A stretch of 64,000 nucleotides of DNA from an uncultured Rhodobacteraceae bacterium (GTDB taxonomy: Bacteria > Pseudomonadota > Alphaproteobacteria > Rhodobacterales > Rhodobacteraceae), in assembly GCA_947500005.1 (NCBI GenBank), contig CANMQJ010000004.1, forward strand, positions 3,399-67,398. The letters run 5' to 3'. Shown here piece by piece: positions 9,813-59,633 of this stretch. The position numbers and the translations under genes were made by a program. Each line of letters opens with the position of its first letter. Within the stretch, counting starts at the first letter, position 1. A model generated the notes under the pieces. The model made no database searches, was not told the DNA's origin, and worked only from the letters and a program-made list of their open reading frames with translations.

Positions 9813-10005
9813 GGGCCTGCCCTGATTGATCGGGTCAGTCCTGCGCGCTGGGGCCGCGCAGGTCAAGACGCCTCGCCACCTGCCCGGGCGGCAATCCTCC
9901 GACGGGTCGGCCCCCTGCATTGCAACCAAAAGATGTAATTTGCGCCGAACGCTTCACAATTGAATGGAATGGATGCAAAATTGCATCGACCAGGGGGAAA
10001 CAACC

Positions 10006-11808
10006 ATGCCAACGCTTCTTGAAATCGCCGATCAACCCGGCTTTCGGTCCGTTCTGATATCGCTCGTCGAATTCGTGGACGAAACCCTGCCCGAGTCCGA
10101 CCTGGCCGGCACGCTCAGCGATCCGCAAATCAGTCTGACCCTCTTTGCGCCCGACGACACCGCCTTCGGCAGGCTGGCGCAGGATCTGGGCTTTGCGGGC
10201 GACGTCACGGATGCGGACGCGATCACGGGTTTCCTCACCCAGACCGTTTCGGCCGAGGCGCTGCATGACATCCTCACCTATCACCTGCTCAACGGCTCGA
10301 CCCTCGCAAGCGAGCTTGAATACATGGGGTCCATCGGCACGAACCAGGGCAGCGGCCTGGAAATTGAAGCGCCCCGGCTGATCGACAGCCACCCGACCCT
10401 GGTCGACAAGGAACCCGACCTCCTCGACCCCGTCTTTTTCGGCCACGGGAACATGGCGGATAACGGTGTGCTCTACACGATCGAGCGGGTTCTGCTGCCA
10501 CTGGACCTGCCCGGTAACGACGCCCCGTCGCTCTCCGAAATCATCGCCGGCGACGGCCCCCTCGCGCAGGAGGAGTTCGAGCTGTTGAGCTCCCTGCTCT
10601 CGACGGCCGGCCTCACGGACCGGCTGGCCGACCCGCAGGCCGACTTTACCGTCTTCGCCCCCAGCGACGCGGGCTTCCTCCGTCTGGCGCAGGAGCTCGG
10701 CTATCCCGGTGAGGACGAGTCCGGCGTGGCAAGCCACCTCCTGCGCGCGCTGAACCTGCTCAGCGCGGGCAACCCCGTGCCGCTGCTGAGCGACATCTTT
10801 CTCACCCATTTCGTGGACGAGTCGCTGCAGACAGGTCAGATGTTCGAACACCAGTTCCCGACGCTCCAGGGCCGCAATGTCACGGCCGACGGTTTCCGGG
10901 TGCACGACTTCGCCGCGAACCTCTCCGATCCAGATATCGTCGATCCCGACATCCTTGCCGCCAACGGCATCCTGCACGTGATCAACGGCGTTCTGGTCCC
11001 GGTCAACGTGCTGTATTCGAATGGCCTCCAGGACGTGATGCTGCATTTCGGCGACGACGATGCCGAAGCCAACGAATTCGGCAATGACAACGACCTGATC
11101 GACGCGGGCGGCGGCAACGACTCGATCGTCGCGCACGAGGGTGACGACATCGTCATGGGTATGGAGGGCAACGACCGCCTCCTTGGCATGGCCGGCAACG
11201 ACTCGCTGCGCGGCGGTGAAGGGCGCGACCTCCTCAATGGCGGCGATGGCGATGACGACATCGCGGGCGGCGGTCTCGGCGACACGATCGTGGCTGGCGC
11301 GGGCGATGACAGCGTCTCGGGCGACATGGGCAACGACCTGCTCTATGGCGAGGGTGGCAACGACACGATCTCGGGCGGGCGCGGTGCCGATCTCCTCGCC
11401 GGGCAGTCGGGAGACGACATCCTCTCCGGCGGCGCGCTCGGCGACGATCTCTTCGGCAATGCGGGCAACGACTTCCTCAACGGCGGCACCGGGTTCGACC
11501 GGCTCAATGGCGGCGACGGCGCCGACCGTTTCTACCACGCGGGCACCGAAAGCCACGGCACCGACTGGATTCAGGATTTCGACCATGCCGAGGGCGACGT
11601 GCTGGTCTTTGGCGGTATGGCCACGGCGGAGGATTTCACCGTGCACACCACGCATACCGATCTGCCCACCCGCCCCGGCGACGCCGAGGTCGAGGAGGTC
11701 TTCGTCGATTACCAGGGCCAGGTGATCTTCGCCCTCGTCGACGGCGCCGCCAATGACAGCCTGATTTTGCGTATCGCCGACGGGACACAGTTCGACCTGT
11801 TCGCCTGA
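10006..11808 (+). CDS. secreted fasciclin (FAS1) domain / RTX calcium-binding repeat protein, paralog A
   Basis: Start at MPTLLEIADQPGF after AGGGGGA RBS; FAS1-like blocks (TLFAPDDTAF, TYHLL, VLYTIERVLLP, ILHVINGVLVP); then many GGxGxDxUx nonapeptides; no N-terminal signal peptide. Confidence 0.85.
   Translation: MPTLLEIADQPGFRSVLISLVEFVDETLPESDLAGTLSDPQISLTLFAPDDTAFGRLAQDLGFAGDVTDADAITGFLTQTVSAEALHDILTYHLLNGSTLASELEYMGSIGTNQGSGLEIEAPRLIDSHPTLVDKEPDLLDPVFFGHGNMADNGVLYTIERVLLPLDLPGNDAPSLSEIIAGDGPLAQEEFELLSSLLSTAGLTDRLADPQADFTVFAPSDAGFLRLAQELGYPGEDESGVASHLLRALNLLSAGNPVPLLSDIFLTHFVDESLQTGQMFEHQFPTLQGRNVTADGFRVHDFAANLSDPDIVDPDILAANGILHVINGVLVPVNVLYSNGLQDVMLHFGDDDAEANEFGNDNDLIDAGGGNDSIVAHEGDDIVMGMEGNDRLLGMAGNDSLRGGEGRDLLNGGDGDDDIAGGGLGDTIVAGAGDDSVSGDMGNDLLYGEGGNDTISGGRGADLLAGQSGDDILSGGALGDDLFGNAGNDFLNGGTGFDRLNGGDGADRFYHAGTESHGTDWIQDFDHAEGDVLVFGGMATAEDFTVHTTHTDLPTRPGDAEVEEVFVDYQGQVIFALVDGAANDSLILRIADGTQFDLFA
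11090..11530 (+). repeat. RTX nonapeptide (GGxGxDxUx) coding repeats inside paralog A
   Basis: GGGNDSIVAHEGDDIVMGMEGNDRLLGMAGNDSLRGGEGRDLLNGGDGDDDIAGG... gives a 27-nt periodic GGC/GAC-rich DNA. Confidence 0.8.
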
Positions 11809-11984
11809 CCGGTCCCGCACGGCCCCGACACGCACCCGCCCGCCTTTGGGCTGGAGCGGCGGCGCGTGCCCACGCCCATCGCTTCCCGGCACGATTCCGC
11901 CCATCACGCCCGCGTGAGCCATCGTGAGCGATCCACCCGTTCTTCCCCTTCGTTCAACGAACATACAACCAAGAGGAGAAGATC

Positions 11985-13775
11985 ATGCCAACGATCACCG
12001 AAATCGCCGCCGGTTCGGAAGATTTTTCCATTCTCGTCGCTGCCCTCGGCTTCGTCGACGAATCCATCCCCGACGCCAATCTTGTGAGTACGCTGGACGA
12101 CCCGGATGGGGATTTCACGGTCTTCGCCCCAACCAACGCGGGCTTCGGCGCCTTGGCCTCCGACCTGGGCTTCACCGGGGACACCACGGATACCGACGCC
12201 GTGACCGCCTTCCTCACCGCCAATGTTCCGGCCAAAACCCTGCGGGACGTGCTCACCTATCACGTCGCGGGCTCCTCGCTGAGCGCGGCCGAGATCACCC
12301 AGGCCGGAACCGTAACCACCTTGCAGGGCGGCACCGTCACGCTCGACGCGCCCACGCTGGTGGATAACGAGCCCGACCTGATCGACCCCTCGCTGACCGC
12401 CACTGACGTGGCCGCCGACAACGGCGTGATCCACGTGATCGACCGCGTGCTCCTGCCCGTGGACCTGCCGGGCAACGACGCCCCCAGCATCGCCGGCATC
12501 GTCGCCGACTCGGGCGAGATCGACGATAACGGTGCCGATTTCGACCTTCTCCTCGCCGCTGTCGGCGTCGCAGGCCTGACCGATGCCCTGAACGACCCGA
12601 ATGCCGACCTGACCGCCTTTGCACCCAATGACGCGGCCTTCATCGGGTTCGCGCAGTTGCTGGGCTATCCCGGCACCGACGAGGCGGGCGCGCTTGCCTT
12701 CATCCAGCGCGGCCTCAACCTGCTCAGCGCGGGTGACCCGGTGCCACTCCTCTCCGACGTCCTTCTCTACCACGTTGCGGGCGAGTCGCTGCAAGCCAGC
12801 CAGGTTCTGTCACGGACCGAGATCACGACGCTCCAGGGCGGTGAGATCACCGTCGACGGCACGACCCTGCGGGATCTCGACCCGGACCTGCCCGATCCCT
12901 CGATCATCGGCACCGATATCCAGGCCGCCAACGGCATCGTGCATGTGATCGATGGCGTGCTGGTTCCGGCCGACGTGCTTGCCTCCGACGGCAGCAACGA
13001 TGTCGACCTGATCCTCGGTGACGACACGGCCGAAACCTACGAGACCGGTGACGACAACGACCTGATCGATGCCGCCGGCGGCAATGACACCGTGCTGGCC
13101 GGCGACGGCAATGACATCGTCCTGGGCATGGAGGGCAATGACCGCATCCTCGGTCAGGACGGCGATGACAGCCTGCGCGGCGGCGAGGGGCTCGACATCC
13201 TCAACGGCGGCGATGGCGATGACGACATCATGGGCGGCGCTCTCAGCGACACGGTCGTGGCAGGCGACGGCAACGATACCGTCAGCGGGGATGACGGCAA
13301 CGACATCCTTTTCGGGCAGGATGGCGATGACGTGATCTCGGGCGGGCTCGGCACCGACCATGTCGCCGGCCAGGATGGCAACGACATCCTCTCCGGCGGC
13401 GCGATCGGCGACGACCTCTTCGGCAACGAGGGCGACGACTTCCTCAACGGCGGCACCGGGTTCGACCGGCTCAATGGCGGGGAAGGGTCCGACCGCTTCT
13501 ACCACGCGGGCACCGAAAGCCACGGCACCGACTGGATCCAGGATTTCGATCATGCCGAGGGCGACGTGCTGGTCTTCGGCGGTATGGCCAGCGCCGAAGA
13601 CTTCGTGGTCCACAGCGTGCATACCGACCTGCCCGAGCGCCCCGGCGACGACGCAATCGAGGAGGTCTTCGTCGACTACCAGGGCCAGGTCATCTTCGCC
13701 CTCGTCGACGGCGCAGCACTGGACAGCCTCATGATGCGGCTCGCCGACGGGACGGAGTTCGATCTGCTGGCCTGA
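11985..13775 (+). CDS. secreted fasciclin (FAS1) domain / RTX calcium-binding repeat protein, paralog B
   Basis: MPTITEIAAGSEDF start after AGAGGAGAAG RBS; same architecture as paralog A; the last ~110 aa are nearly identical to A. Confidence 0.85.
   Translation: MPTITEIAAGSEDFSILVAALGFVDESIPDANLVSTLDDPDGDFTVFAPTNAGFGALASDLGFTGDTTDTDAVTAFLTANVPAKTLRDVLTYHVAGSSLSAAEITQAGTVTTLQGGTVTLDAPTLVDNEPDLIDPSLTATDVAADNGVIHVIDRVLLPVDLPGNDAPSIAGIVADSGEIDDNGADFDLLLAAVGVAGLTDALNDPNADLTAFAPNDAAFIGFAQLLGYPGTDEAGALAFIQRGLNLLSAGDPVPLLSDVLLYHVAGESLQASQVLSRTEITTLQGGEITVDGTTLRDLDPDLPDPSIIGTDIQAANGIVHVIDGVLVPADVLASDGSNDVDLILGDDTAETYETGDDNDLIDAAGGNDTVLAGDGNDIVLGMEGNDRILGQDGDDSLRGGEGLDILNGGDGDDDIMGGALSDTVVAGDGNDTVSGDDGNDILFGQDGDDVISGGLGTDHVAGQDGNDILSGGAIGDDLFGNEGDDFLNGGTGFDRLNGGEGSDRFYHAGTESHGTDWIQDFDHAEGDVLVFGGMASAEDFVVHSVHTDLPERPGDDAIEEVFVDYQGQVIFALVDGAALDSLMMRLADGTEFDLLA
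13060..13500 (+). repeat. RTX nonapeptide coding repeats inside paralog B
   Basis: AAGGNDTVLAGDGNDIVLGMEGNDRILGQDGDDSLRGGEGLDILNGGDGDDDIMGG... Confidence 0.8.
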
Positions 13776-13835
13776 GACGCCCCGATTGTCGCCCAAGGCG
13801 AAACGATGGCATCGCCGGGGCGTCTTTGCCCCTTG

Positions 13836-13861
13836 AAAGCCGCGCTTCGGCGCGGCTTTTT
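13836..13861 (+). terminator. rho-independent terminator after RTX paralog B
   Basis: AAAGCCGCGC-TTCG-GCGCGGCTTT followed by TT; preceded by a second hairpin GGGGC-GTCTTT-GCCCC (13817-13832). Confidence 0.7.
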
Positions 13862-13946
13862 CCGCGAAAAAGCGCCTCTCTTTGCGCAATTCCGCTCGCT
13901 TCGTCAGGCTTCATGGACCAGGGGCGCAAACAGAGCGAGAGTTGAC

Positions 13947-14297
13947 ATGATGGCCAAGACCCATGCGGGCGCGACCGCGATCCGCGACTTTCCCCAAACC
14001 GCGGGCCCGGCCCGCTTCGACAGCGAAACCGCGGCCCTGCTGCGCGCGATCCTGCGGCCCGTCTTCGACGGCGCGGCCGATTGGGCGGCGCTGATGGCCG
14101 GGCTGCGCGACAAGGGCTATCGCCTGTGCATGCGCGAAGGACGCCTCTCGGTCGTCGACGCGATCAGCGGCGTGCGCATCTGCGGGCTGCGCTTCCTGGG
14201 CTACCACATGACCGACCTGGTCCGCCGCATGGGCCGTCCGGTCGTCATCGCGCGCTCGGGTCACGACGGCGACATCGTGGCGCCCGGCCACCACTAG
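13947..14297 (+). CDS. hypothetical protein (116 aa)
   Basis: ORF 13806.. trimmed to the ATGATG downstream of the terminator; GC-rich third codon positions; no recognisable motif. Confidence 0.45.
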   Translation: MMAKTHAGATAIRDFPQTAGPARFDSETAALLRAILRPVFDGAADWAALMAGLRDKGYRLCMREGRLSVVDAISGVRICGLRFLGYHMTDLVRRMGRPVVIARSGHDGDIVAPGHH

Positions 14298-14334
14298 GCG
14301 CGCCGGCCCCGCCCGCGCGCCTTGGAACCCGGGT

Positions 14335-15732
14335 TTACAGCCAGGTGTGAAAGGACCGCTTGGCCATCGGCTCCCAGTGCTCGCCGCGCACGGCGTGATG
14401 GGGCCCATAGATCTCGGCCACGCGCTTGACGGCCTCTTCCGGCGTCAGCTCCTCGCTCTCGCCCGTGCGGCGGCTGGTCAGTTCGACCACACCGTTCTTC
14501 AACCCGCGCGGCCCCACCGTGATGCGCCAGGGCAGCCCGATCAGGTCCATCGTCGCGAACTTGCCGCCCGCCCGCTCGTCGCGGTCGTCGTAAAGCGGCT
14601 CCAGCCCCACGGCCGACAGCGCCTCGTAGATCTTCGCGCAGGCCGCATCCGCCTCGTCATCCCCCTGCTTGAGGTTGACGATCCCGCAATGGAAGGGCGT
14701 CACACCCTCGGGCCAGATGATCCCCTTGTCGTCGTGGCTCGCCTCGATGATCGCCCCCACCAGGCGGCTCACCCCGATGCCGTGGCTGCCCATGTGCACC
14801 GGCACCGCCTTGCCATCGGGCCCCTGCACCGTCGCGCCCATCGGCTCGGAATACTTGGTTCCGAAATAGAAGATCTGCCCGACCTCGATGCCGCGCGCCA
14901 CGCGGCGGCGCTCCTCGGGGATCTGCTCGAACAGCGCCGCGTCATGCGTCTCGTCCGTGCGCGCATAGCGCGAGGTGAATTCCTCGAGGATGGAGCGGCA
15001 CTGGTCGCGGTCGTCATAGTCGATCTCGCGGTCGCCAAAGGTCAGCTCCGTGACCGCGCTGTCATAGAACACTTCCGACTCGCCCGTCTCGGCCAGAACC
15101 AGGAATTCATGCGTGTCATCGCCGCCGATCGGCCCTGAATCCGCCCGCATCGGAATCGCCTGCAAGCCCATCCGCTCATAGCTGCGCAGGTAGCTGACCA
15201 GGTGACGGTTATAGGCGTGCAACGCGTCTTCCTTGGTCAAGTCGAAATTGTACCCGTCCTTCATCAGGAACTCGCGCCCGCGCATCACGCCGAAACGCGG
15301 ACGCACCTCGTCGCGGAACTTCCACTGGATGTGATAAAGCGTCAGCGGCAGGTCCTTGTAGCTGCTGACATGGCTGCGGAAGATATCCGTGATCAGCTCT
15401 TCGTTGGTGGGCCCGAAAAGCATGTCGCGCTCGTGCCGGTCGCGAATGCGCAGCATCTCGGGTCCATAGGCGTCATAGCGCCCCGATTCCCGCCACAGGT
15501 CGGCCGATTGCAGCGTCGGCATCAGCATCGGGATATGTCCCGCGCGGATCTGTTCCTCGTGGACGATCTTCTCGATATTGCGAAGCACCTTGTAGCCCAA
15601 GGGCAGCCAGGAATAGATCCCCGCGCTCGCCTGCTTGATCATGCCCGCACGCAGCATCAGCCGGTGGCTGACGATCTGCGCCTCGCTGGGCGTCTCCTTG
15701 AGTACGGGCAGAAAATAACGGGACAGGCGCAT
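14335..15732 (-). CDS. proS: proline--tRNA ligase (alphaproteobacterial short type)
   Basis: [34 protein letters not shown]...; class II aaRS motifs ([28 protein letters not shown]); anticodon-binding C-terminus. Confidence 0.9.
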
Positions 15733-15912
15733 CGGGTCTCTCTTCCTCACCGGGTCGGGCAGTTTCCACGCGGTCTAAGCCATCGCCGCGCCGCAGGCAA
15801 TCGCTGTCCCTCGTGTTGCCCGTTTCCGCATCATGCGACCGGTCGGACGGGCGAAACTTTCCAGAAGGTTGACGGCAGGCCGCTTCAAGACGACAGGCGG
15901 CCCTCGAAGCTC

Positions 15913-15993
15913 TGTACAAAACGGTCAATCGCGACAAAGGACCCGGTACAAAACGGTCAATCGGAGCAGACGACCCGGTACAAAACGAAACAG
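15913..15993 (+). repeat. phased motif array, locus 1: 3 units of GTACAAAACGG(TCAATCG) at 32-bp spacing
   Basis: GTAC cores at 15914, 15946 and 15978; units TGTACAAAACGGTCAATCG / GGTACAAAACGGTCAATCG / GGTACAAAACGAAACAG; lies in the non-coding proS-perM gap. Confidence 0.65.
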
Positions 15994-16440
15994 ATGGGAG
16001 GAAGAGCGGCCCGGCCCTCAATTTGCCAGGCCGCCCGGAACCCGCCGCGCCGACATTGGGGACAGGGGCGGCAGACTGTTGCGTCCGGGACGAAACTTGT
16101 CCCATCACCTTTTGTCTCACGGCCCTTTCCCCAAAAAGCTGCGTCGAAATCACAACGGTCACATAAGGGGTTGCTGGGCAAGGTTCACTCACGACACGGC
16201 TGGCAGACTGACGTGAAGCGGCGCCTCGCGCCAGTGCGGGTTTCCTCATATCCACGGGCGCGGCAGCACATGACTTCGGACACCTGTGGACTGACCAGAT
16301 TTTTTATCTATATTTCAATTTACTAGCCACAACCCCTCAAGCGCTCAAAGCCAAACTTCGATGTCACGGCCGCCATTCCCCTTGCATCGCGCAGCGGCAT
16401 CGGCGAAACACAAACTGGCGCCGCGGGGACAGGGATCGAC

Positions 16441-17505
16441 ATGGCATTGCCGGTAAAAGAGCAAGTCAGCTACTGGGGCGTCGCCGCAGTGGTGTTCGTC
16501 GTGATCCTGTGGTTTCTCGGTGACGTGCTGCTGCCCTTCGTCATCGGTGGCGGCATCGCCTATTTCCTCGATCCGGTGGCCGACCGGCTGGAGCGCTGGG
16601 GCTTCTCCAGAATCGCCGCAACGGCAACGATTACAATAGGTTCCATCCTGATCTTCGTGCTTGCCATCCTGATGGTCCTGCCCACGCTGATCAGCCAGAC
16701 GCTTGCCCTGATCGACACCATGCCGAAGGTCTTCAGCGATCTGCGCGCCTTCCTGGACGAGAATTTCCCCGCCCTTCAGGACAGCAATTCCAGCGCCCGG
16801 CAGGCGCTGGCGCGCGTCGCCGAGACGCTGACCGCGAAATCCGGCGAACTGGTGCAGACGCTGCTGAACTCGGCCGGAAACGCCATCAACATCGTGGTGC
16901 TTCTGGTCATCGTCCCCGTCGTCGCCATCTACATGCTGCTCGACTGGGACCGTATGGTGGCCGAGATCGACAAGCTGCTGCCCCGCGACCACGCACCGAC
17001 CATCCGCCGCCTGGCCCGCGACGTGGATCGGACACTGGCCTCCTTCGTGCGGGGCATGGGAACGGTTTGTCTCATACTTGGAACGTATTACGCGGTGGCC
17101 TTGATGCTGGTCGGGCTACAATTCGGCCTTGTGGTCGGGTTCATCGCGGGGCTGCTGACCTTCATCCCCTATCTCGGGGCATTGATCGGCGGGGTGCTGG
17201 CGATCGGGCTTGCCCTGTTCCAGTTCTGGGGCGACTGGCTCAGCATCGTGCTGGTCGCGGCGATCTTCCAGGTCGGCCAACTGGTCGAGGGCAATTTCCT
17301 GACGCCCAAGCTGGTGGGGGACTCGGTCGGGCTGCACCCGGTCTGGTTGCTCTTTGCGCTGTCCGTCTTCGGCGCACTTTTCGGTTTCGTCGGGCTGCTG
17401 GTCGCGGTACCCGTGGCCGCTGCGCTGGGCGTTCTGGCCCGGTTCGGCGCACAGCAATATCTCCACAGCCGCCTTTACAAGGGCTTGGAACAGGACCAGG
17501 ACTGA
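16441..17505 (+). CDS. AI-2E family (PerM/UPF0118) membrane transporter
   Basis: 354 aa, about 8 TM helices; LLPFVIGGGIAYFLDPVADRLER and C-terminal GxxGxxLAVP patterns typical of the family. Confidence 0.85.
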   Translation: MALPVKEQVSYWGVAAVVFVVILWFLGDVLLPFVIGGGIAYFLDPVADRLERWGFSRIAATATITIGSILIFVLAILMVLPTLISQTLALIDTMPKVFSDLRAFLDENFPALQDSNSSARQALARVAETLTAKSGELVQTLLNSAGNAINIVVLLVIVPVVAIYMLLDWDRMVAEIDKLLPRDHAPTIRRLARDVDRTLASFVRGMGTVCLILGTYYAVALMLVGLQFGLVVGFIAGLLTFIPYLGALIGGVLAIGLALFQFWGDWLSIVLVAAIFQVGQLVEGNFLTPKLVGDSVGLHPVWLLFALSVFGALFGFVGLLVAVPVAAALGVLARFGAQQYLHSRLYKGLEQDQD

Positions 17506-18183
17506 ATGGCGCATCAGCTGAGCTTCGACCTGCCCGCCAAGACTGCGCTGGGCCGCGAGGATTTCTATGTCTCGCCCGCGAACGCGCTTGCCGTGGCGAT
17601 GATCTCGGCCACGACCTGGCCCGGCGGCAAACTGACGCTGAGCGGACCTGCGGGCAGCGGCAAGACCCATCTCGTCCATGTCTGGGCCGCGGAAACCGGG
17701 GCCCGGATCTTGCAGGCCACCACCCTGACCGAGGCCGCGATTCCCGACCTCGCCACCGGCCCCGTCGCGATCGAGGACGTGCCTGACATCGCCGGCGACG
17801 CCGAGCGCGAGGCGCTGCTTTTTCACCTGCACAACCTTGCCCTGGCCCAGGGGCAGGCGCTGCTTTTTACCGGACGTGGCGCCTCCTCCGGCTGGGGCCT
17901 TGCCCTGCCGGACCTGGCCAGTCGCATCGCCGCAGCCCATCACGTCGCGATGGAGCCGCCCGACGATGCGCTGCTCTGCGCGGTGCTTGCCAAGCTCTTC
18001 GCCGACCGTCAGTTGAACCCGAAACCCGACGTCATCCCCTATCTGGCACGTCACATGGATCGCAGCTTCGAGGCCGCCGCGCGCATCGTGGCACGGCTCG
18101 ACAGCGTCGGCCTTGCGGAAAAGCGGGAGATCAGCCGCGCGCTGGCCATCGACCTTCTGAACCGGGACAGTGACGATGATTGA
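17506..18183 (+). CDS. hdaA: DnaA-related regulatory protein HdaA
   Basis: N-terminal QLSFDL clamp-binding-like motif, Walker A GPAGSGKTHL, DnaA domain III-like; the ATG immediately follows the perM stop. Confidence 0.8.
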   Translation: MAHQLSFDLPAKTALGREDFYVSPANALAVAMISATTWPGGKLTLSGPAGSGKTHLVHVWAAETGARILQATTLTEAAIPDLATGPVAIEDVPDIAGDAEREALLFHLHNLALAQGQALLFTGRGASSGWGLALPDLASRIAAAHHVAMEPPDDALLCAVLAKLFADRQLNPKPDVIPYLARHMDRSFEAAARIVARLDSVGLAEKREISRALAIDLLNRDSDDD

Positions 18184-19777
18184 CCCCACCGCCCCGAACG
18201 ACCATCTTCGGCATGACGTGATACAGGACGAGCTCTCAGACACCGATGGCCCCGTTCCGGACTGGGGTACGTTCGGGCGCCCGCTCTTCGACGATCCCAG
18301 CGCACGAGCCCTTTCGCGGGTCGGGGTGGTCGATGTGGGCTCGAACTCCGTCCGAATGGTCGTGTTTGACGGCGCGGCGCGCTCGCCGGCCTATTTCTAC
18401 AATGAAAAGGTGATGTGCGCGCTGGGTGCGGGCCTGTCCGAGACCGGAAGGCTGAACCCCAAAGGGCGGCAGAGGGCGCTCTCGGCCCTGGCGCGGTTCG
18501 CACAGCTGGCCCGCGGGCTGGACATGCCGCCGCTGCATGTGGTGGCGACCGCCGCGGTCCGCGATGCCAGAGACGGGCCGGAGTTCTGCGAGGAGGTCCT
18601 GCGTGAGACGGGCCTGCGCCTGCGGGTCATCGACGGGCAGGAGGAGGCCCGGCTTTCGGCGCAGGGCGTTCTGCTGGGATGGCCGGGCGCCTACGGGTTG
18701 ATCTGCGATATCGGCGGCTCCTCGATGGAACTGGCCGAGATCGCGCAGGGCCGCGTCGGGCGGCGGGTCACCTCGTCACTGGGTCCGCTCAAGCTGCGCG
18801 ACATCAAGGGGGGGCGGCGCGGCCGCAAGGCGCATATCAAGCAGACCATGGAAGAGCTCAAGGCAAGCCTCGGCTTGCAGCGCGACCGGCTGTTTCTGGT
18901 CGGCGGCAGCTGGCGCGCCTTCGCCAAGATCGACATGCTGCGCCGGAATTACCCGCTTCAGGTGCTGCACGAGTACCGCATGACCGCGAAACAGGTGCAT
19001 GCCACGGTCAAGTTCATCGAAGAAAACGATGCCGACAAGATCCGTCAGGCAGCCGGCATCTCGTCGTCTCGGATGTCGCTTCTGCCTTATGCGATGGACG
19101 TGTTGGTGCGGCTGATCGGTACATTCAAACCCAAGGACATCGCGATCTCCAGCTACGGTATCCGCGAGGGTCTGCTTTATGAACAGATGCCGCGCCGCCT
19201 GCGAGACCGCGATCCGCTGGTCGAGGCCTGTCGATTTGCCGAGGCCAAGGACGCGCGCATTCCCGGTTTCGGGCGTAAACTGTTCGATTTCGTGATGCCC
19301 CTGTTCAAGACGGCCTCGCCGGCCAAGGTGCGGCTGATCAAGGCCGCTTGCCTGCTGCACGATGTAAGCTGGCGCGCCCATCCCGATTACCGGGCCGAGG
19401 TCTGTTTCGACAACGCCACCCGCGCCAACCTCGGCGGGCTCAAGCATTCCGAGCGGGTGTTCCTGGGCCTGGCCTTGCAGCACCGCTATCGCAACAAGCG
19501 CGAAGGCGACCGGTTCGAGCCGCTTTTCGCGCTGCTCGACGAAAAGGGCCAGAAGGAGGCGGAGATTCTGGGCAAGGCGATGCGCGTCGGCGCAATGCTG
19601 TGGATCCAGAACGACACGCGTCCGGGCAGCCTGCGCTTCTATCCCAAGAAGAAAAAACTGGAACTCATGCTGCCGGAATCCGCGCTGCCCCTCTACGGCG
19701 AGGTCGCCGAGTCGCGCTTCGTCTCGCTGGGCAACGCGCTGGATGCCGAGGTCGCGGTCCTGGTCGAGGCCGACTAG
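18170..19777 (+). CDS. ppx: Ppx/GppA-family exopolyphosphatase
   Basis: VVDVGSNSVRMVVFD and ICDIGGSSMEL ASKHA-fold phosphate motifs; HD-like C-terminal domain (LLHDVSW). Confidence 0.8.
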   Translation: MTMIDPTAPNDHLRHDVIQDELSDTDGPVPDWGTFGRPLFDDPSARALSRVGVVDVGSNSVRMVVFDGAARSPAYFYNEKVMCALGAGLSETGRLNPKGRQRALSALARFAQLARGLDMPPLHVVATAAVRDARDGPEFCEEVLRETGLRLRVIDGQEEARLSAQGVLLGWPGAYGLICDIGGSSMELAEIAQGRVGRRVTSSLGPLKLRDIKGGRRGRKAHIKQTMEELKASLGLQRDRLFLVGGSWRAFAKIDMLRRNYPLQVLHEYRMTAKQVHATVKFIEENDADKIRQAAGISSSRMSLLPYAMDVLVRLIGTFKPKDIAISSYGIREGLLYEQMPRRLRDRDPLVEACRFAEAKDARIPGFGRKLFDFVMPLFKTASPAKVRLIKAACLLHDVSWRAHPDYRAEVCFDNATRANLGGLKHSERVFLGLALQHRYRNKREGDRFEPLFALLDEKGQKEAEILGKAMRVGAMLWIQNDTRPGSLRFYPKKKKLELMLPESALPLYGEVAESRFVSLGNALDAEVAVLVEAD

Positions 19778-20196
19778 AGTTCGATCTGCCCCTGCGGGGC
19801 CTCCTCACTGTCGGTCTCCGGCTCCGTTTCCGGCTCGGGCTGTTTCTTGCGGATGATGATATCGCCATTCGGCAACATCTCGGGCACCTCGTAGGTGCTC
19901 CAGTCCTCCACCTCGGACATGAGCCGCGACAGGGCGGGGCCCATCTCCTCGAGAAAGCCCTGCATCTTGGGCCCGAACTCCTCGGCCAAGGCCCGCATGT
20001 CGTCTATGGCGGGCTCCATCTCCTCGCGCAGTCCCTTGAAGAAAAGCTCGGCCCCCTGCTCCATGAGCGATTTGCCACCTTCCTCTTCCACCTGCGCAGA
20101 AAGCGGAGCGGCGACGAGGGCGATCAGTGTAAAAGGCAATATGAACCGGGTCATGTCCCCAATATAGACACCTCGGGGCAAGCCTGCAAAGGTCAT
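19774..20196 (-). CDS. hypothetical secreted acidic protein
   Basis: Signal peptide MTRFILPFTLIALVAAPLSAQ (alternative ATG at 20154); the ATG at 20196 overlaps the upstream gene's stop as ATGA; Glu/Pro-rich C-terminus. Confidence 0.5.
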   Translation of the reverse strand: MTFAGLPRGVYIGDMTRFILPFTLIALVAAPLSAQVEEEGGKSLMEQGAELFFKGLREEMEPAIDDMRALAEEFGPKMQGFLEEMGPALSRLMSEVEDWSTYEVPEMLPNGDIIIRKKQPEPETEPETDSEEAPQGQIEL

Positions 20197-21206
20197 GTCT
20201 CGAAATCGAGGCTGACGGGGAAATGGTCCGACGCGGCGAGCAACGCCTGGTGCAGCTCCGGCGTCCGGTAGCAGACCGCATCGTCGAACGGATGCCAGAT
20301 GCGCCAGGCGGGGCGGCGCGCCCGAAGGCCGGGGGTGATCATGACGTAATCCAGCAGCGCCTCGAGATAGCGCCCCCGCTCACGCAACTCGAACCGCGCC
20401 GTGGTCGGCAGCGCGCCGGGCCGGACCTGACGCGAGAGATCCGCATGCGGGTCGTAGAGCCCGGCGTCGAGCAGGATCTCGACCGAGGAGCGGCCGAACA
20501 GATGCTCGAACTCGTCCAGCCCCGGCCCGTCGTTCAGATCGCCCAGCAGCACCACCTCGTCGCCCGCCTCGCGATGCTCGCGCACCCGCTGCGCCAGCCA
20601 GATCGCCTGCGCCAGTTGCTTGCGGCGGTTGGTGATCGAGATGCGCATGGCCTCGGCCGCCGACTCGGCCCCGTGTGGGACCTTGGATTTGAGATGCACC
20701 CCGATCATGCGAAAATGCAGGCCCGAGGCGGTCTGCACCTCAAGCTCCAGGGGAGGTTTCGAAAAGCGCACCAGGTCCTCGGTCGCGTCGATGTCGAGAT
20801 CGATCCGGAAGGTGCCGTCGAAACGCGGCGCCTCCACCGCGCCTTTCTTGCCGGTGGGTTCTCCGCGCGGATCGTGGCGCGCGGTCACCACATAGGGATC
20901 GTAGAGCAGCGCGATTTCCTGATGCGTCTCGTTGGCGAAGCCGATCGCCGCGCTTTTCGTGCGCAGGTCGAACGCGGTGGCGAACCGTTCCAGCGCGCGC
21001 ACGGTGTCCTGCGTACGCCCGGTATTGGGCGCCTCTATGATCATCACCGCATCGGCATCCAACGCGGTCAGCACGATCGCGATGGCCTCGGCCTGCTGCG
21101 CGCGGCTTACCCCTTCGCGGCCCGAAGGCAGATCATCGGGCAGCAGCAGATCATCGCGGTCGAAGAGATTGGCGAACCATTCGATGTTCCAGGTGGCAAG
21201 CCGCAT
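20193..21206 (-). CDS. endonuclease/exonuclease/phosphatase (EEP) family protein
   Basis: MRLATWNIEWF N-terminus, internal LLGDLND and C-terminal SDHFPV motifs typical of the EEP fold. Confidence 0.75.
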   Translation of the reverse strand: MRLATWNIEWFANLFDRDDLLLPDDLPSGREGVSRAQQAEAIAIVLTALDADAVMIIEAPNTGRTQDTVRALERFATAFDLRTKSAAIGFANETHQEIALLYDPYVVTARHDPRGEPTGKKGAVEAPRFDGTFRIDLDIDATEDLVRFSKPPLELEVQTASGLHFRMIGVHLKSKVPHGAESAAEAMRISITNRRKQLAQAIWLAQRVREHREAGDEVVLLGDLNDGPGLDEFEHLFGRSSVEILLDAGLYDPHADLSRQVRPGALPTTARFELRERGRYLEALLDYVMITPGLRARRPAWRIWHPFDDAVCYRTPELHQALLAASDHFPVSLDFET

Positions 21207-49306: not shown

Positions 49307-50127
49307 CGCGCCAGCCCGCCCCGCGCCTCGGCCAGTGTCTCGATGGCGCGCAGCACATAGGGCGTGCCACAGACCCAGTCCCTGTCCGACATCACCGCCT
49401 GCCCCGAGCGGGCGCGCAGTTGCGCGATGACCGGGTGATCCATCGTCTCCTTGGCCCGTCCATGCCCCGGCGACGGGCGCGCCGTGATCACCACGTCCGG
49501 ATCGACCAACGCCAGCCGCTCCAGCGGCAGCACCCCGCCCCAGTCATAGCCCAACTCGGCCGCCACGTTGCGATAGCCTGCCGCCTTCAGGATCTGGCCC
49601 GCGAGGCTCTGCTCACCCTCGGTCCAGCCGCGCAGCGCATAGATCGCGGCGCGCGGCCCCTTCTCGTCGGTCAAGCGCAGCGCCGCCAGCCCCGCGTCAT
49701 AGCGCGCGACCAGTGCGCGGGCCGCGTCCTGACGGCCCAGAACCACGCCCATCCGCAGGATGTTCTCGCGCACTGCCTCCAGCGAGCGGGCAGGCTCGAA
49801 AACCTCGACCGGCACCTCCAGCCGGCGCATCATCGCCACCGTGGCCCGCGCCGAGAAGGATCCCGCGACCACCAGGTCCGGCCGCTGCAGATAGATCTCC
49901 TCGGCCAGCCCGTGATTGATGGCGAAGCCGCGCGCCTCTTCCGACATGGCCGAGGCGCGCGGATCGCGGGCCAGATGCGTGACAGAGTGAAGCTGGCCGG
50001 GTGCGGCCAGCAACATCGCCAGCTGATCGGTGCAGAGGTTCATCGACACCACCCTCTGTGGCTGCGCCTGCACAAGACAGGCCCAGCCCAGCGTCAGGCA
50101 AACCGCGATGGCCCCCGCGCCCCGCAT
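49303..50127 (-). CDS. btuF: periplasmic binding protein, BtuF/FecB-like
   Basis: Signal peptide MRGAGAIAVCLTLGWACLVQA; class III (cluster A) PBP pattern RVVSMNLCTDQL. Confidence 0.75.
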   Translation of the reverse strand: MRGAGAIAVCLTLGWACLVQAQPQRVVSMNLCTDQLAMLLAAPGQLHSVTHLARDPRASAMSEEARGFAINHGLAEEIYLQRPDLVVAGSFSARATVAMMRRLEVPVEVFEPARSLEAVRENILRMGVVLGRQDAARALVARYDAGLAALRLTDEKGPRAAIYALRGWTEGEQSLAGQILKAAGYRNVAAELGYDWGGVLPLERLALVDPDVVITARPSPGHGRAKETMDHPVIAQLRARSGQAVMSDRDWVCGTPYVLRAIETLAEARGGLAR

Positions 50128-51995
50128 CAGAAGGAGGCCTGCAACCCGACATAGGCCGTGCGGCCGCGCTTGGCATAGCCCCAGACGTCGGAATACTCCT
50201 CGTCGAACAGGTTCACCACCCGCCCCGTCAGGTCCACGTTGTCGGTCAAGGCATAACGCGCGCTCAGATCCACGGTCACGTAATCGGGCAGCTTCTCGGT
50301 CGCGAAGGTCCCGAAGAACTGCGTGTCGTAATTGTCCGCGACATAGCGGATATCGGCCGCCAACAGCCCGCGCCCGCCCATGATCTCCTGCTTGGCGCTC
50401 AGCAGCAGCTCGTGCCGGGGACGGCGCACCTCGACCGACCCGTTCGGGTTCTCGGCATCGACATAGGTATAGCTCAGCCGCAGGTCGAGCGTATCCGTCG
50501 CCGCCAGCTCGCCCGACAGCTCGACACCGCGCCGCGTACTGTCGCCCGCCTGGTTGATATAGGTCGAGGTGCTGGTCACCGGGTCGAACACATCGGTGAT
50601 CTCATCCGTCAGCGTGTCGTGGAACAGCGTCACATCCACCAGGCCGCGCCCCTGTAGGATCGGCATCTCCAGCCCCAGGTCAAAGGAGCGGTTCTTCTCC
50701 GGGCGCAGGTTGGGGTTGCCGACATAGCCGAAGGCGTTGGCGAACAGCTCGAAATAGGTCGGGTTCACAACGCCGGTCCCCGCCGAACCATGTACCCGCA
50801 TCCCGTTGGCGAACAGGTAGGAGCCCGCAAGCGTCCAGGTCACCTCGTCCTCGAAGGTCTCGTTGTCGTCATAGCGCGCACCGGCCTGGATGTTCAGCCC
50901 GTTGGCCAGCCGCCCGCGATATTCCATCGCGACCGAGCGCGACTCGCGTCGATAGCTCGGATTCGTGGTGCTGGAATCGCGCTCCCATTCCAGGATGGTG
51001 TTGAGCAGGTGATCGCTGTCGCGCGCCTGCGCCCCGTCCAGACCATAGCTCAGCAGATAACGCGCGCGCTCCCGGTCGGCCTCGGTCGGCGCCCCGCCAT
51101 TGGTCGAGCTCTCGTAATCCGTCCGGTCATAGCTCAGCCGATGCAACATACGGCCGTCAAGCGCCTCGTATTCGCCGTAGACCTCCCAGATCCGCTCGTC
51201 GCGATCGGCGAACTGGGTGGGATCGTCGACGATGTAGCCCTGCGGCGTGGTCGCGGTGAAGTCGGTGTTGTCAAAGGCATAATCCTCCTCCGACTGGCGG
51301 AACATGAAGCCCAGCTTCAGCCGGTCGGTCAGCTTGTAATCGCCGCTCAGCTGCACGCTGTCGCGTTCCACGCTATCATCCTCGCCGCCGCTGCCCGAGT
51401 AATCATAGCCGTCATCGTCCAGCCGCGCGAGGTTCAGCGCGATGCCGCCCCGCTCGGTCCGGAAGGAATAGCGCGCCGAGGCCGCGTACCCGTCGCCGAC
51501 CTCAATCCGGCCGCCGAACTCCTGCCCCAGCCCGCCGGTCCTGGTGATGATGTTGATCACACCGGACGAGGCGTTCGACCCGTAGAACACCGATTGCGGT
51601 CCGCGCAGCACCTCGATCCGCTCGATATTGGCGGCCTGCAACCCCGACAGGTTGTAATCGCCATCGCCCGCCGAGGCCGGAACCCCGTCGATCAGGATCA
51701 GCGTGTGATTGGCCTCGCCGCCGCGAATGCGCACCGCGGTGAACGAATCGCCCGCCCCGCTCACCGATACGCCGGGCAGCCCGCGCAGCGCGTCCTGAAC
51801 GGTGACGATGCCGCGCGCCTCGATCTCCTCGCCGGTCAGAACGCTGACCGCGCGACCGTACTCTGCCTCCTCGATCGGCGTGAACCCGCCCGACACGACG
51901 ACGGTGCCAAGGTCCAGCGCCTCCTGCGCGAAGGCCGAGGTAGTAAGCATCAGGGCTGCCGTTACGGAAGCCGCTCGGAACGTGTATCTTGTCAT
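50127..51995 (-). CDS. btuB: TonB-dependent outer-membrane receptor, BtuB-like
   Basis: Start at MTRYTFRAASVTAALMLTTSAFAQE; TonB box DLGTVVVSG; plug domain then barrel; terminal ...YVGLQASF; preceded by a cobalamin riboswitch. Confidence 0.85.
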   Translation of the reverse strand: MTRYTFRAASVTAALMLTTSAFAQEALDLGTVVVSGGFTPIEEAEYGRAVSVLTGEEIEARGIVTVQDALRGLPGVSVSGAGDSFTAVRIRGGEANHTLILIDGVPASAGDGDYNLSGLQAANIERIEVLRGPQSVFYGSNASSGVINIITRTGGLGQEFGGRIEVGDGYAASARYSFRTERGGIALNLARLDDDGYDYSGSGGEDDSVERDSVQLSGDYKLTDRLKLGFMFRQSEEDYAFDNTDFTATTPQGYIVDDPTQFADRDERIWEVYGEYEALDGRMLHRLSYDRTDYESSTNGGAPTEADRERARYLLSYGLDGAQARDSDHLLNTILEWERDSSTTNPSYRRESRSVAMEYRGRLANGLNIQAGARYDDNETFEDEVTWTLAGSYLFANGMRVHGSAGTGVVNPTYFELFANAFGYVGNPNLRPEKNRSFDLGLEMPILQGRGLVDVTLFHDTLTDEITDVFDPVTSTSTYINQAGDSTRRGVELSGELAATDTLDLRLSYTYVDAENPNGSVEVRRPRHELLLSAKQEIMGGRGLLAADIRYVADNYDTQFFGTFATEKLPDYVTVDLSARYALTDNVDLTGRVVNLFDEEYSDVWGYAKRGRTAYVGLQASF

Positions 51996-52139: not shown

Positions 52140-52335
52140 CCGCGTGCGGACAGGGTGATCGTTCTGGCAGGTCTCCTGACTTGCGGGTCACAGCCTTGTC
52201 GGGCCTTCCCATCCGTGACCGGACAGTGGCATGTTCCGACAATGCTCGCCGCTTACAGTTGCGGGGGCAGTCGAGGATTTGGCGCCGTCGGTTTCCCCTG
52301 GGCCGCACCTCGTTCCCTATTATCCGGATGGCATC
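52140..52335 (-). promoter_or_regulatory. cobalamin (B12) riboswitch in the btuB leader
   Basis: The minus strand reads AAUAGGGAACGAGGUG...AAAUCCUCGACUGCCCCCGCAACUGUAAGCGG...GCCACUGUCC...GGGAAGGCC...CAAGUCAGGAGACCUGCCAG (B12 box). Confidence 0.85.
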
Positions 52336-52417
52336 CCACCCGGACCAGAACATCCCGGCAATCGCAGATCGGCGGCGGGCTTGTCAATCGTGAAGTTCGG
52401 CCTAAGCGGCGTCGCCC

Positions 52418-52500
52418 CCGTTTTGTACAAAACGGCACAAGTGGCCTCCGCGCGCAGTACAAAACGGAACAAACGCGCCGGTTTTCGGTACATCGCAAAT
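52418..52500 (+). repeat. phased motif array, locus 2: 3 GTAC-anchored units at 32/31-bp spacing
   Basis: GTAC cores at 52425, 52457 and 52488; unit 1 lies inside the 18-bp perfect palindrome CCGTTTTGTACAAAACGG (52418-52435); units GTACAAAACGGCACAAG / GTACAAAACGGAACAAAC / GTACATCGCAAATTC. Confidence 0.65.
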
Positions 52501-52502
52501 TC

Positions 52503-52531
52503 TTGACAGCGAGGCCGCGGCGTCACTATGC
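52503..52531 (+). promoter_or_regulatory. candidate sigma70-type promoter of exbB
   Basis: TTGACA-N17-CTATGC, about 60 nt upstream of the exbB ATG and 12 nt downstream of the third array unit. Confidence 0.4.
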
Positions 52532-52589: not shown

Positions 52590-53588
52590 ATGACATCGAG
52601 CCTGAAGGTTTGCGCGGTCCTTGCCCTCGCGATGCTCTGGTCCAGCGCCGCAGCCGCTCAGCAAGCCCCGTCCGCGCCGCCCGCTCCGGCGGTCGAGAAC
52701 GGTGTCGAGCGGCCCGCTTCACCCGACACCTCGCCGCGCGTGACACCCGATTCCCCGATGGCCGAACCCCCATTGGACGCGCCCGACGACAGCCCTGCCG
52801 AGGTCGCGGCCGGGGGTTCTGCCCCGCAGGCAGAGACCGAGATACTCCAGGGTCAACCGCCTGAAACGGAACGGACAATTTCCACCGACGCCGCCCTGCC
52901 CGAGGCAGGAACCCCGACGGAGACACTCGGCGCGACGGCAAGGGCCGCCTCCGAGCGCGCGCTGCAATTCCTGCGCGACGGCGGCCCGGCCATCTGGGCC
53001 ATTGCCGTGCTGTCGGTGGTGACTGTCGCCCTGATCATGTGGAAGATCTGGCGCCTGGCGCTTACCGGCGCCTGGTCGCGCGGCAAGGCCGGGCGCGCGG
53101 TCGAACTCTACCTCGCAGGCGACGCCGCCGCCGCCCTGGCCCTGGTCGAAGGCCGTCGTGGGATCCGGTCGCGGGTGATGGCAACAGCATTGAAAAGCCT
53201 GGAAAACCTCCCCGAAGGAGCCGCCCGCGAAGAAACCGCGAGGGTCGCCAAGCGGCATCTTGCAACAGCGCGCGATGGCCTCGGCGCGCTCGAACTCATC
53301 GCCACCATCGCGCCCCTCCTCGGCCTTCTCGGGACGGTTCTCGGCATGATCGCGGCCTTCCAGGCGCTTCAGGCCGCGGGGTCGCGCGCCGATCCGGCCC
53401 TTCTGGCAGGCGGTATCTGGGAGGCGCTGCTGACCACCGCGGCCGGCATGGCCGTAGCAATCCCCGCCTCGGCCGCGCTGACCTGGTTCGACTCGGTCAT
53501 CGAGCGGATGCGCCGCGATATCGAGGACAATTCCGTGCGCGTCTTCATCGCCGCGACGCCGGTCGGGATGAAGCTGGCGGCCGAATAG
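52590..53588 (+). CDS. exbB: MotA/TolQ/ExbB proton-channel protein with a long Pro/Ala/Glu-rich N-terminal extension
   Basis: Start at MTSSLKVCAVLALAMLWSSAAAAQ; C-terminal ExbB core (IAPLLGLLGTVLGMI...GIWEALLTTAAGMAVAIP). Confidence 0.85.
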   Translation: MTSSLKVCAVLALAMLWSSAAAAQQAPSAPPAPAVENGVERPASPDTSPRVTPDSPMAEPPLDAPDDSPAEVAAGGSAPQAETEILQGQPPETERTISTDAALPEAGTPTETLGATARAASERALQFLRDGGPAIWAIAVLSVVTVALIMWKIWRLALTGAWSRGKAGRAVELYLAGDAAAALALVEGRRGIRSRVMATALKSLENLPEGAAREETARVAKRHLATARDGLGALELIATIAPLLGLLGTVLGMIAAFQALQAAGSRADPALLAGGIWEALLTTAAGMAVAIPASAALTWFDSVIERMRRDIEDNSVRVFIAATPVGMKLAAE

Positions 53589-53967: not shown

Positions 53968-54351
53968 ATGGACCTGAGCGAGCCCCCCAAGCGCCCGCGC
54001 GGCGAATCCATCGTTCCGATGATCAACGTGGTGTTCCTGCTGCTGATCTTTTTCCTGATGACCTCGCAGCTGGCGCAACCCGATCCCTTCGACGTGACCC
54101 CGCCGCATGCCCGATCCGACGCGGAGGTCGAGGCCGAGCCGGTACTTTTCGTCGACGACGCGGGACGATTGTCCTTTGCCGGTGCAAAGGGACGGCAAGC
54201 GATCGAGGCCATCACCGCGATCGGCAATGAGACAGCGGTGATCCAGTTGCGCGCCGATGCAGATCTCGAGGCCGCGAAACTCGCCGCGATCCTGCGCCAA
54301 TTGTCCGAGGCCGGTCTCGCCCGCGTCGAACTGGTGGTCGCGCGAAAATGA
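53968..54351 (+). CDS. exbD: ExbD/TolR biopolymer transport protein (copy 2)
   Basis: SIVPMINVVFLLLIFFLM signature. Confidence 0.85.
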   Translation: MDLSEPPKRPRGESIVPMINVVFLLLIFFLMTSQLAQPDPFDVTPPHARSDAEVEAEPVLFVDDAGRLSFAGAKGRQAIEAITAIGNETAVIQLRADADLEAAKLAAILRQLSEAGLARVELVVARK

Positions 54352-55520: not shown

Positions 55521-55607
55521 TGGTGCGGTCGAGAAGACTCGAACTTCCACGGGTGTTACCCCACAGCGACCTCAACGCTGCGCGTCTACCAATTCCGCCA
55601 CGACCGC
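55521..55607 (-). tRNA. tRNA-Leu(GAG)
   Basis: The minus strand reads GCGGUCGUGGCGGAAUUGGUAGACGCGCAGCGUUGAGGUCGCUGUGGGGUAACACCCGUGGAAGUUCGAGUCUUCUCGACCGCACCA; anticodon loop UU-GAG-GU; long variable arm. Confidence 0.9.
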
Positions 55608-58907: not shown

Positions 58908-59051
58908 TGCTCTGCCTTGGGGTCAAGTATCCGCGATTCCGGGCAGAAGAAAAGGTCCGGCACCCGACGCTCTGATCCAAACGCAGCATTCCGGAGATGC
59001 GGAACTCAAGCTCGAAGAAACGAACACGTTTTCAAGAGCTTGCGGTCGGCG

Positions 59052-59480: not shown

Positions 59481-59557
59481 TGCCTGTGTTGATCGGTGGT
59501 CGGAAAGAGTTGTGAGCGACCCCTGCCCCCCGGTCAACCCGCCCCCGCCGGTTTCGG

Positions 59558-59633
59558 GGTTTGTACAAGGCCGAACGGCTGTCTTGACCGTTTTGTACAT
59601 CGGTTCGGGGGGTGATTGACCGTTTTGTACAAG
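59558..59633 (-). repeat. phased motif array, locus 3 (inverted orientation): 3 units at 32-bp spacing
   Basis: GTAC cores at 59627, 59595 and 59563; the plus strand shows TTGACCGTTTTGTACA twice (59584-59599, 59616-59631) plus the degenerate GTTTGTACAA; the array points toward the HIT gene. Confidence 0.65.

Follow-up and report, generated by a model that had tools for sequence, protein, structure and literature searches.

Long intergenic motifs with strand polarity are, to our knowledge, rare in bacteria, and the Ter sites are their main precedent. In the Ter systems a site lies directly upstream of the gene for its own binder (TerB-tus, TerI-rtp), and each RTP Ter site binds two dimers. We know of no fork-trap or polar-barrier system in the Alphaproteobacteria. 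A second class of described sites is the operators of YefM-type antitoxins. The operator of YefM in Escherichia coli is built from paired palindromes that share a 5'-TGTACA-3' core (L repeat TCATTGTACAATGA) and lie 12 bp apart from centre to centre, and in many genomes TGTACA boxes commonly occur in pairs upstream of yefM-yoeB (PMC1802561). Here we describe an element with likenesses to both, first seen as a phased triplet of short units between proS and perM in a 64,000-nt stretch of an uncultured Rhodobacteraceae genome (this whole stretch is referred to as the window). On balance, we favour the reading that the triplet is one copy of a dispersed, lineage-restricted and replication-oriented element, bound by an orphan YefM-like protein in some Roseobacter-group genomes. 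On this reading the site is a YefM-type TGTACA operator with altered geometry, chromosome-wide spread and replication orientation, for which the literature searched contains no earlier description. Searches for oriented intergenic repeats or orphan YefM in the Rhodobacterales returned nothing relevant, and searches by sequence strings yielded only primers and irrelevant matches.

Three phased arrays in the window

Arrays of GTACAAAACG-type units occupy positions 15913-15993 (+), 52419-52500 (+) and 59553-59631 (-). Their units are as follows, with scores in bits from a position-weight matrix.

15913-15931, + strand: array 1 unit 1, TGTACAAAACGGTCAATCG, 31.2 bits
15945-15963, + strand: array 1 unit 2, GGTACAAAACGGTCAATCG, 28.4 bits, 32 bp past unit 1
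15977-15993, + strand: array 1 unit 3, GGTACAAAACGAAACAG, exact core with a degenerate 3' half, 16.9 bits, in 32-bp phase
52419-52442, + strand: array 2 unit 1, core at 52425, 23.5 bits, inside the palindrome CGTTTTGTACAAAACG
52456-52474, + strand: array 2 unit 2, AGTACAAAACGGAACAAAC, 24.3 bits, 32 bp past unit 1
52487-52500, + strand: array 2 degenerate unit 3, GGTACATCGCAAAT, below 6 bits, 31 bp past unit 2
59613-59631, - strand: array 3 unit 1, TGTACAAAACGGTCAATCA, 31.3 bits
59581-59599, - strand: array 3 unit 2, TGTACAAAACGGTCAAGAC, 28.9 bits, 32 bp past unit 1
59553-59567, - strand: array 3 degenerate unit 3, TGTACAAACCCCGAA, 7.9 bits, in 32-bp phase

The GTAC cores of array 1 begin at 15914, 15946 and 15978 (spacings of 32 and 32 bp) and those of array 2 at 52425 and 52457, followed by a degenerate GGTACATCG at 52488 (32 and 31 bp). 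On the minus strand, the cores of array 3 begin at 59630, 59598 and 59566, equivalent to 59627, 59595 and 59563 in plus-strand coordinates (32 and 32 bp). The phased triplets at three loci, their core positions, the periods of 31-32 bp and the inversion of the third array, all given in the initial annotation of this DNA, were thus reproduced. An exact count also returned the four occurrences of the 15-mer GTACAAAACGGTCAA that it had reported. With up to three mismatches, this 15-mer has six matches in the window against 0.35 expected (0 of 100 shuffles reach six), and the 10-mer core with up to one mismatch has eight against 0.66 expected, a count attained by no shuffle. A weight-matrix scan of all 64 kb detected no further unit of at least 12 bits outside the arrays, and Rfam searches of the window and of the proS-perM gap returned no family covering them.

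All three arrays lie in divergent gaps: array 1 between proS (-) and perM (+), array 2 between a B12 riboswitch-btuB unit (-) and an exbB-like gene (+), and array 3 between a HIT gene (-) and an sll1863-like gene (+). In each, the degenerate unit is the one closest to the gene pointed at, as had been claimed.

Unit 1 of array 2 is a perfect 16-bp palindrome (52419-52434), and is the only unit in which both half-sites are complete.

A two-unit element dispersed in Roseobacter-group genomes

A search of 185,579 genomes, one for each species, for two exact cores separated by any gap of N8-38 yielded at least 108 loci. The family counts below (65-75 loci) are drawn from the matches listed and require exact cores. 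Among the matches listed, 73 of about 125 same-strand core pairs are exactly 32 bp apart from start to start, so the phasing also exists outside the window. These 32-bp pairs come essentially all from Roseobacter-group genomes, in which nearly every pair has this distance, and other phyla contribute scattered spacings. Array-bearing genera among the same matches include Ruegeria, Seohaeicola, Lutimaribacter, 'Phaeobacter' marinintestinus, Jannaschia, Mameliella, Marinibacterium, Shimia, Chachezhania, Silicimonas and Aestuariivita.

Alignment of 65 copies gives a bipartite consensus, tTGTACAAAACGGtCAA, a variable gap of about 16 nt and GTACAAAACGGTCAAAaC. The element is therefore a unit of about 52 bp made of two direct repeats of (T)TGTACAAAACGGTCAA placed exactly 32 bp apart. 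Information is confined to positions -2 to +50 of this alignment, with weak preferences in the spacer and unconserved flanks. The T at position -1 carries 1.6 bits in unit 1 and is weak in unit 2, where only GTACAA is thus kept. Close same-strand unit pairs (up to 100 bp) have the 32-bp spacing in 68 of 77 cases, single units are rare, and 154 of 159 units are intergenic, against a coding share of 84% in the sampled DNA. Third units are uncommon, occurring in the three window arrays and in loci L100, L101, L102 and L023, always in 32-bp phase. The architecture of two good units plus a degenerate third, which had been read from the window, is therefore not general; the family unit is a pair.

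Orthologous copies were identified in different genera: the window copy and L008 upstream of perM, L010/L083, L016/L100, L059/L091, L075/L078, L003/L039 and L040/L067/L103. In these the units have been kept, whereas the sequence of spacers and flanks has diverged to a near-random level of identity. The perM site is common to Lutimaribacter (L008). However, 74 perM-orthologous upstream regions from Roseobacter-like metagenome contigs (438 kb in total) contained no array. We conclude that the element is lineage-restricted rather than ancestral and patchy in distribution, a pattern that resembles an accessory protein-plus-site system.

The core also occurs in other arrangements, in L080 and L090 (Mameliella), L145 and L147 (metagenome) and L190 (Pseudoruegeria). 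These consist of tandem 9-10-bp runs (GTACGTTTTGTACGTTTTGTAC; three to four copies of GTACAAAAC) and of the variant GTACAAAACCGGCA of the unit. In both spacing and flank, the recognition module seems to be evolving.

Strand polarity tracks GC skew

GC skew over the surrounding 8 kb, read in the orientation of the element, is below zero in 57 of 70 loci (mean -0.043; Wilcoxon p = 2e-9). In these 57, GTACAAAACGG lies on the C-rich (lagging) strand, and the G-rich (leading) strand reads 5'-TTGACCGTTTTGTAC-3' regardless of the orientation of neighbouring genes. The bias is present in every class of flanking genes and increases to 41 of 46 loci after averaging of plus- and minus-strand genes, which cancels the coding-strand effect (+0.03). 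Arrays on the same contig are mostly on one strand. Where their strands differ, or where strand and skew disagree, the skew changes sign accordingly or is near zero.

The window itself provides an example. Its skew is negative from position 1 to about 58.9 kb and positive beyond, with one sharp transition:

58900-59050, no strand: change of GC skew sign, negative on the left and positive on the right (origin-type direction)

Arrays 1 and 2 (+) lie to the left of this switch and array 3 (-) to the right, so the orientation flips with the skew. Independence from neighbouring genes points to a link with replication or another chromosome-wide polarity rather than with local transcription. By the GC-skew proxy, the sites share one orientation relative to replication, as Ter sites do, and they are thus more than local promoter operators.

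Gene context

Genes were called in 75 loci by codon statistics, and the contexts were read in the orientation of the element:

convergent genes: 22 copies
gene start on the 5' side and end of an opposite-strand gene on the 3' side: 19 copies
gene end on the 5' side and gene start on the 3' side: 15 copies
divergent genes: 10 copies

This mix is roughly that of random placement among intergenic regions, and a few copies are inside operons. About a third of the copies (22 of 68) lie between convergent genes, close to the share expected from random placement, and in 41 of 68 the 3' end of a gene lies on the GGTCAAAAC side. At that end, 26 of 70 copies have the stop codon of an opposite-strand gene at a distance of 0-13 nt. 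On the TGTACA side gene ends lie at 5-60 nt, and only two copies have one as near as this. In terms of transcription, co-directional genes run into the element, and head-on genes end short of it. No common functional theme was apparent among the genes that abut the copies.

Because about a third of the copies are convergent and 26 of 70 begin within 13 nt of a stop codon, the element is not promoter-specific, and we found no enrichment upstream of gene starts with depletion elsewhere, as a promoter regulon would have. The divergent intergenic location emphasized initially holds for all three window arrays; it does not extend to the family, in which convergent copies outnumber divergent ones. 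The idea of a promoter-associated site is likewise not supported for the family, given the convergent copies, the 19 more at a gene 3' end and those that follow a stop codon.

A candidate binding protein encoded beside the element

At three orthologous loci (L040, L067 and L103), a small gene starts 13-21 nt from the TGTACA end of the element. It encodes a protein of about 140-160 amino acids with a match to Pfam PF02604 at residues 3-50, that is, to the Phd/YefM family. Ten more loci (L189-L198) were examined with gene calls. In 12 of the 14 genomes covered overall (including L189, L191-L196 and L198), two (T)GTACA(A) cores at a distance of exactly 32 bp lie upstream of this gene in the same orientation, and 11-21 nt separate the proximal one from the ATG. 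In the Ruegeria group, the 32-bp spacing persists despite diverged flanking unit sequence.

The family is very small: among 5.8 billion proteins, a single-sequence search returned 40 clusters and a profile search 117. Named members are from Phaeobacter marinintestinus, Shimia gijangensis, Shimia thalassica, several Ruegeria, Chachezhania, Aestuariivita, Cribrihabitans, Pseudoruegeria and Marivivens, to which the Marinibacterium copy (L103) is added. Most genera with named members also turned up arrays in the independent DNA scan. The locus is usually syntenic with lepA. No toxin Pfam match was found downstream of the gene in the ten loci L189-L198, so that no cognate yoeB, doc or txe accompanies it there. 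The gene that follows is convergent, except in L190, where it is a same-strand entericidin-like open reading frame (ORF).

In an AlphaFold (AF2) model (mean predicted local distance difference test score, pLDDT, of 77.7), residues 1-56 adopt a Phd/YefM fold, residues 88-110 form a long helix modelled with confidence, and the tail is disordered, basic and rich in tryptophan and arginine. Foldseek retrieved YefM, Phd and Mycobacterium RelB antitoxins with probability 1.0, including DNA-bound complexes; these matches cover the N-terminal domain only. The C-terminal module was found in no other architecture and is confined to this family.

The DNA side agrees in part with this assignment. The palindromic unit core TTGTACAA corresponds to the inner 8 bp of the L repeat from E. 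coli, and the unit consensus tTGTACAAAACGGtCAA contains the palindromic TGTACA core of YefM and Phd operators. The spacing of those operators is not preserved, being 32 bp both in the element and upstream of the orphan gene. The position expected for autoregulation, just upstream of a yefM/phd gene, is held by one copy per genome, and not by the window arrays or by most family members. The cooperative binding by an oligomeric DNA-binding protein that was suggested from the phasing is the most plausible reading, and the orphan gene, with its 32-bp pair in 12 of 14 genomes, provides a sequence-based candidate for that protein.

Two features of the locus were noted in passing. In L192 (Phaeobacter marinintestinus) the orphan gene (10001-10417) lies about 1.4 kb upstream of a gene-transfer-agent cluster (11475-20417; terminase, portal, capsid and others). 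A 45-amino-acid entericidin-like ORF occurs 0.1-1.5 kb from the orphan gene in L189, L190 and L194-L198; it is upstream of the gene in six of these seven loci and about 100 bp downstream in L190.

Proposed mechanism

We predict that the likeliest binder of the element is the orphan YefM-like protein, with its N-terminal Phd/YefM fold, long conserved C-terminal helix and basic, tryptophan- and arginine-rich tail. The copy at the orphan gene may be the ancestral one, in a classic autoregulatory arrangement, and the site type would have multiplied in intergenic DNA in some lineages. As 32 bp corresponds to three helical turns, both cores would be on one face of the DNA. Dimers on the two cores, probably bridged via the C-terminal helix, could form one complex per element, and the asymmetric conserved extension AACGGTCAA would give that complex a direction. 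It may be a polar protein-DNA obstacle or an architectural mark, permissive to machinery that moves with replication and blocking to machinery that moves against it. At the window copies, the same complex could additionally modulate transcription (of perM, exbB/btuB and HIT).

A polar obstacle or architectural mark fits better than a regulon because of the uniform replication orientation, the indifference to promoters and the one-sided relation to transcription, in which the stops of co-directional genes lie 0-13 nt away and head-on genes end 5-60 nt short. The stronger proposal, a polar barrier with dozens of sites that lets forks and co-directional RNA polymerases pass and stops origin-ward ones, is speculative and we consider it unlikely. 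If the link between protein and site is true, a chromosome-level system with its own family of dispersed, oriented sites has arisen by co-option of a DNA-binding module from toxin-antitoxin systems.

Several points weigh against the favoured reading. The link between protein and site is drawn from adjacency, from taxon overlap where taxa are named and from the motif of a distant homologue. At L190 the array is about 900 bp upstream of the orphan gene, and at L197 it has decayed. The orphan gene is absent from the window, and we assume its presence elsewhere in the organism. The extension AACGGTCAA is not explained by the symmetric 12-bp operators of the YefM type and could instead be the part of another factor. 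The window copies are all beside promoters, where a purely regulatory role is possible. Polarity was measured with GC skew as a proxy for the direction of replication, and on scanned loci rather than complete chromosomes. No DnaA-box cluster, CtrA sites or typical origin genes were found near the skew switch of the window, which is therefore probably a rearrangement (inversion) or island boundary and not oriC. Convergent regions with the element have hairpin potential equal to those without it, so the element is not a simple terminator substitute. Finally, as the scan required exact cores and the counts come from the matches listed, copy number and taxon range are minimum estimates.

Alternative explanations

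A classical operator array is the most credible of the alternatives, if a rather unlikely one. A transcription factor, possibly the same YefM-like protein, would repress or activate genes globally, with the dispersed copies marking a regulon that includes perM-hdaA-ppx, exbB/btuB and HIT. The three window arrays are in divergent promoter regions, just upstream of the core promoters of perM, of the exbB-like gene and btuB, and of HIT, with the weakest unit by -35-like hexamers: unit 3 of array 2 adjoins TTGACA at 52503-52508, upstream of the exbB-like gene (start 52590), and unit 3 of array 3 is about 15-20 nt upstream of the TTGACC of the HIT-family gene (59052-59480, -). In the family, 47 of 68 members touch at least one gene start, the perM association is common to Lutimaribacter, and the copy at the orphan gene clearly has the position of an autoregulatory operator. 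There are precedents in principle for orphan antitoxin-like regulators that act on additional chromosomal targets, for example MqsA and proteins of the AbrB/MazE fold. However, convergent copies have no promoter to serve and occur at about their random-placement share, 26 copies adjoin stop codons, the neighbouring genes have no functional theme, and orientation tracks GC skew instead of those genes. The array is also missing from the 74 orthologous perM upstream regions of the metagenome contigs.

A selfish or mobile repeat is quite unlikely. It would be similar to repetitive extragenic palindromic (REP) sequences or miniature inverted-repeat transposable elements (MITEs), or be a solo transposon end (of the kind with transposase sites beginning 5'-TGT), and would spread via single-stranded DNA at the fork. 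Such a repeat would explain the polarity and the patchy, lineage-restricted distribution with several copies per genome. A bias of orientation relative to replication, strong here, is known for IS200/IS605 and for TnsE-directed Tn7. Conservation begins abruptly at TGT, and copies are often placed directly after stop codons. Against this, no inverted partner or second end was found within 3-8 kb of the element, and in neither orientation does the folding energy of the spacer or of the whole element exceed that of shuffled controls. Within one genome, copies differ fully in spacers and flanks while the two repeats are near-identical, which indicates selection on each locus and not recent copying. 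Copies are retained at orthologous positions across genera, and the sole consistently linked gene is the YefM-like DNA binder, with no associated transposase. Viral contigs searched for the element gave 0 matches. A BLAST search of plasmids returned only spurious spacer matches and is too insensitive for single units of 17-19 nt. Thus, neither the inverted repeats or hairpins of REP sequences and MITEs nor the similarity of their copies over the whole length is found here. That the motif might be a dispersed repetitive element, which the initial annotation named as a way to be wrong, applies in so far as the copies are dispersed and not promoter-specific; they lack conserved flanks and are not in coding DNA.

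Action at the level of RNA is highly improbable. Two copies of UUGACCGUUUUGUAC in the 3' untranslated region of co-directional genes would be a signal for protein binding, stability or termination, as the strongly one-sided stop codon 0-13 nt upstream in the same sense (26 of 70 copies) and the U-rich units could suggest; yet folding is at the level of shuffled controls in either orientation, no Rfam family matches, no gene reads in that sense into 27 copies, among them the three of the window, some copies are in the opposite sense inside operons, polarity tracks GC skew whatever the neighbours, and a palindromic TGTACA core with strict helical phasing is typical of duplex-DNA recognition.

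Other candidates were rejected. If the units were promoters, with TTGACC or TTGTAC as a -35 hexamer, the consensus has no conserved -10 at a workable distance. IHF, CRP/FNR, PpsR and GANTC sites do not fit the consensus by eye, and the initial statement that the motif does not fit the operators it listed for this clade (LexA, FnrL, PpsR, CtrA, Irr and RirA) is supported. A hairpin or terminator was discarded on the folding results and on the hairpins kept in element-bearing convergent regions.

Hence the notion of a phased protein-binding array was right in spirit, and its framing as a promoter operator or as iterons was too narrow. Annotation of the window arrays as a perM-specific operator or as iterons is unwarranted.

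Surroundings of the window arrays

Between array 1 and the conserved perM promoter/leader (16379-16440) there are about 385 bp (15994-16378). In Lutimaribacter (L008) the array is merely about 35 nt from the perM leader, and the long distance in the window is thus due to some 385 bp of extra DNA. This segment contains an AT-rich patch (16296-16330) and one weak sigma-70-like match (16287-16314). The distance had been taken to suggest an unannotated transcript that starts downstream of the array. This found little to build on, since there is no Rfam match and the one weak promoter-like match is about 300 bp downstream.

A cobalamin riboswitch (52149-52364, -; 137 bits) heads the gene for a TonB-dependent B12 receptor (50127-51950, -). 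Array 2 separates this unit from a divergent cluster of exbB/tolQ-like (52590-53588, +) and TonB-like (54348-55376, +) genes. A tRNA-Leu (GAG) gene (55521-55607, -) has the TonB-like gene on one side and lipB on the other.

Comparison with known systems

Plasmid iterons, too, are phased direct repeats on a single face of the helix, each about 19 bp long. Here, however, the repeats recur every 32 bp instead of about every 22 bp, their copies are scattered over the chromosome, and no rep gene, DnaA boxes or AT-rich unwinding region adjoins them. For the window, the iteron-like arrangement proposed initially is not sustained, as no rep gene, DnaA-box cluster or origin features were found.

REP sequences and bacterial interspersed mosaic elements (BIME), Rhizobium-specific intergenic mosaic elements (RIME) and enterobacterial repetitive intergenic consensus (ERIC) sequences are dispersed and intergenic as well, often at gene 3' ends or in convergent gaps, and have been proposed as protein-binding platforms. 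Unlike these, the element is non-palindromic, without a hairpin, conserved flanks or mosaic structure, and its sequence is strand-polar and conserved over many genera.

The FtsK-orienting polar sequences (KOPS) and Chi share the strong bias towards one replication strand across the chromosome. They are words of 5-8 nt that lie mostly in genes at kilobase density, whereas the element is bipartite, about 52 bp long and intergenic.

The operators of YefM-YoeB, Phd-Doc and Axe-Txe resemble the element in the TGTACA core and in the pairing of sites. A Phd/YefM-family gene has one copy in the roughly 80 bp upstream of it, and the candidate has the DNA-binding fold of that family. The differences are the spacing (32 bp from centre to centre instead of 12 bp), the direct repeats with an asymmetric conserved 3' extension AACGGTCAA, the orphan state of the gene, which has no downstream toxin and encodes a novel conserved C-terminal helix, and the dispersal of replication-oriented sites over unrelated intergenic regions.

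The Tus-Ter system of the Enterobacterales and the RTP-Ter system of Bacillus differ from the element in several respects. The fold of the candidate is unrelated and there is no homology, so that the likeness is a functional analogy, known here from sequence alone. The only consistently associated gene encodes a Phd/YefM fold, and no search aimed at Tus or RTP homologues was made. Copy number seems higher here, with three arrays in 44 kb, and the binding cores are 32 bp apart and do not overlap. The likeness lies in a lineage-restricted protein-plus-site system with asymmetric sites that are uniform relative to replication, and in a site directly upstream of the gene for its putative binder. 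In addition, the arrangement described here suggests one-sided protection from transcription, as for Ter sites. If the polar barrier were true, it would have evolved independently, from a toxin-antitoxin part, as a third system analogous to Tus-Ter and RTP-Ter.

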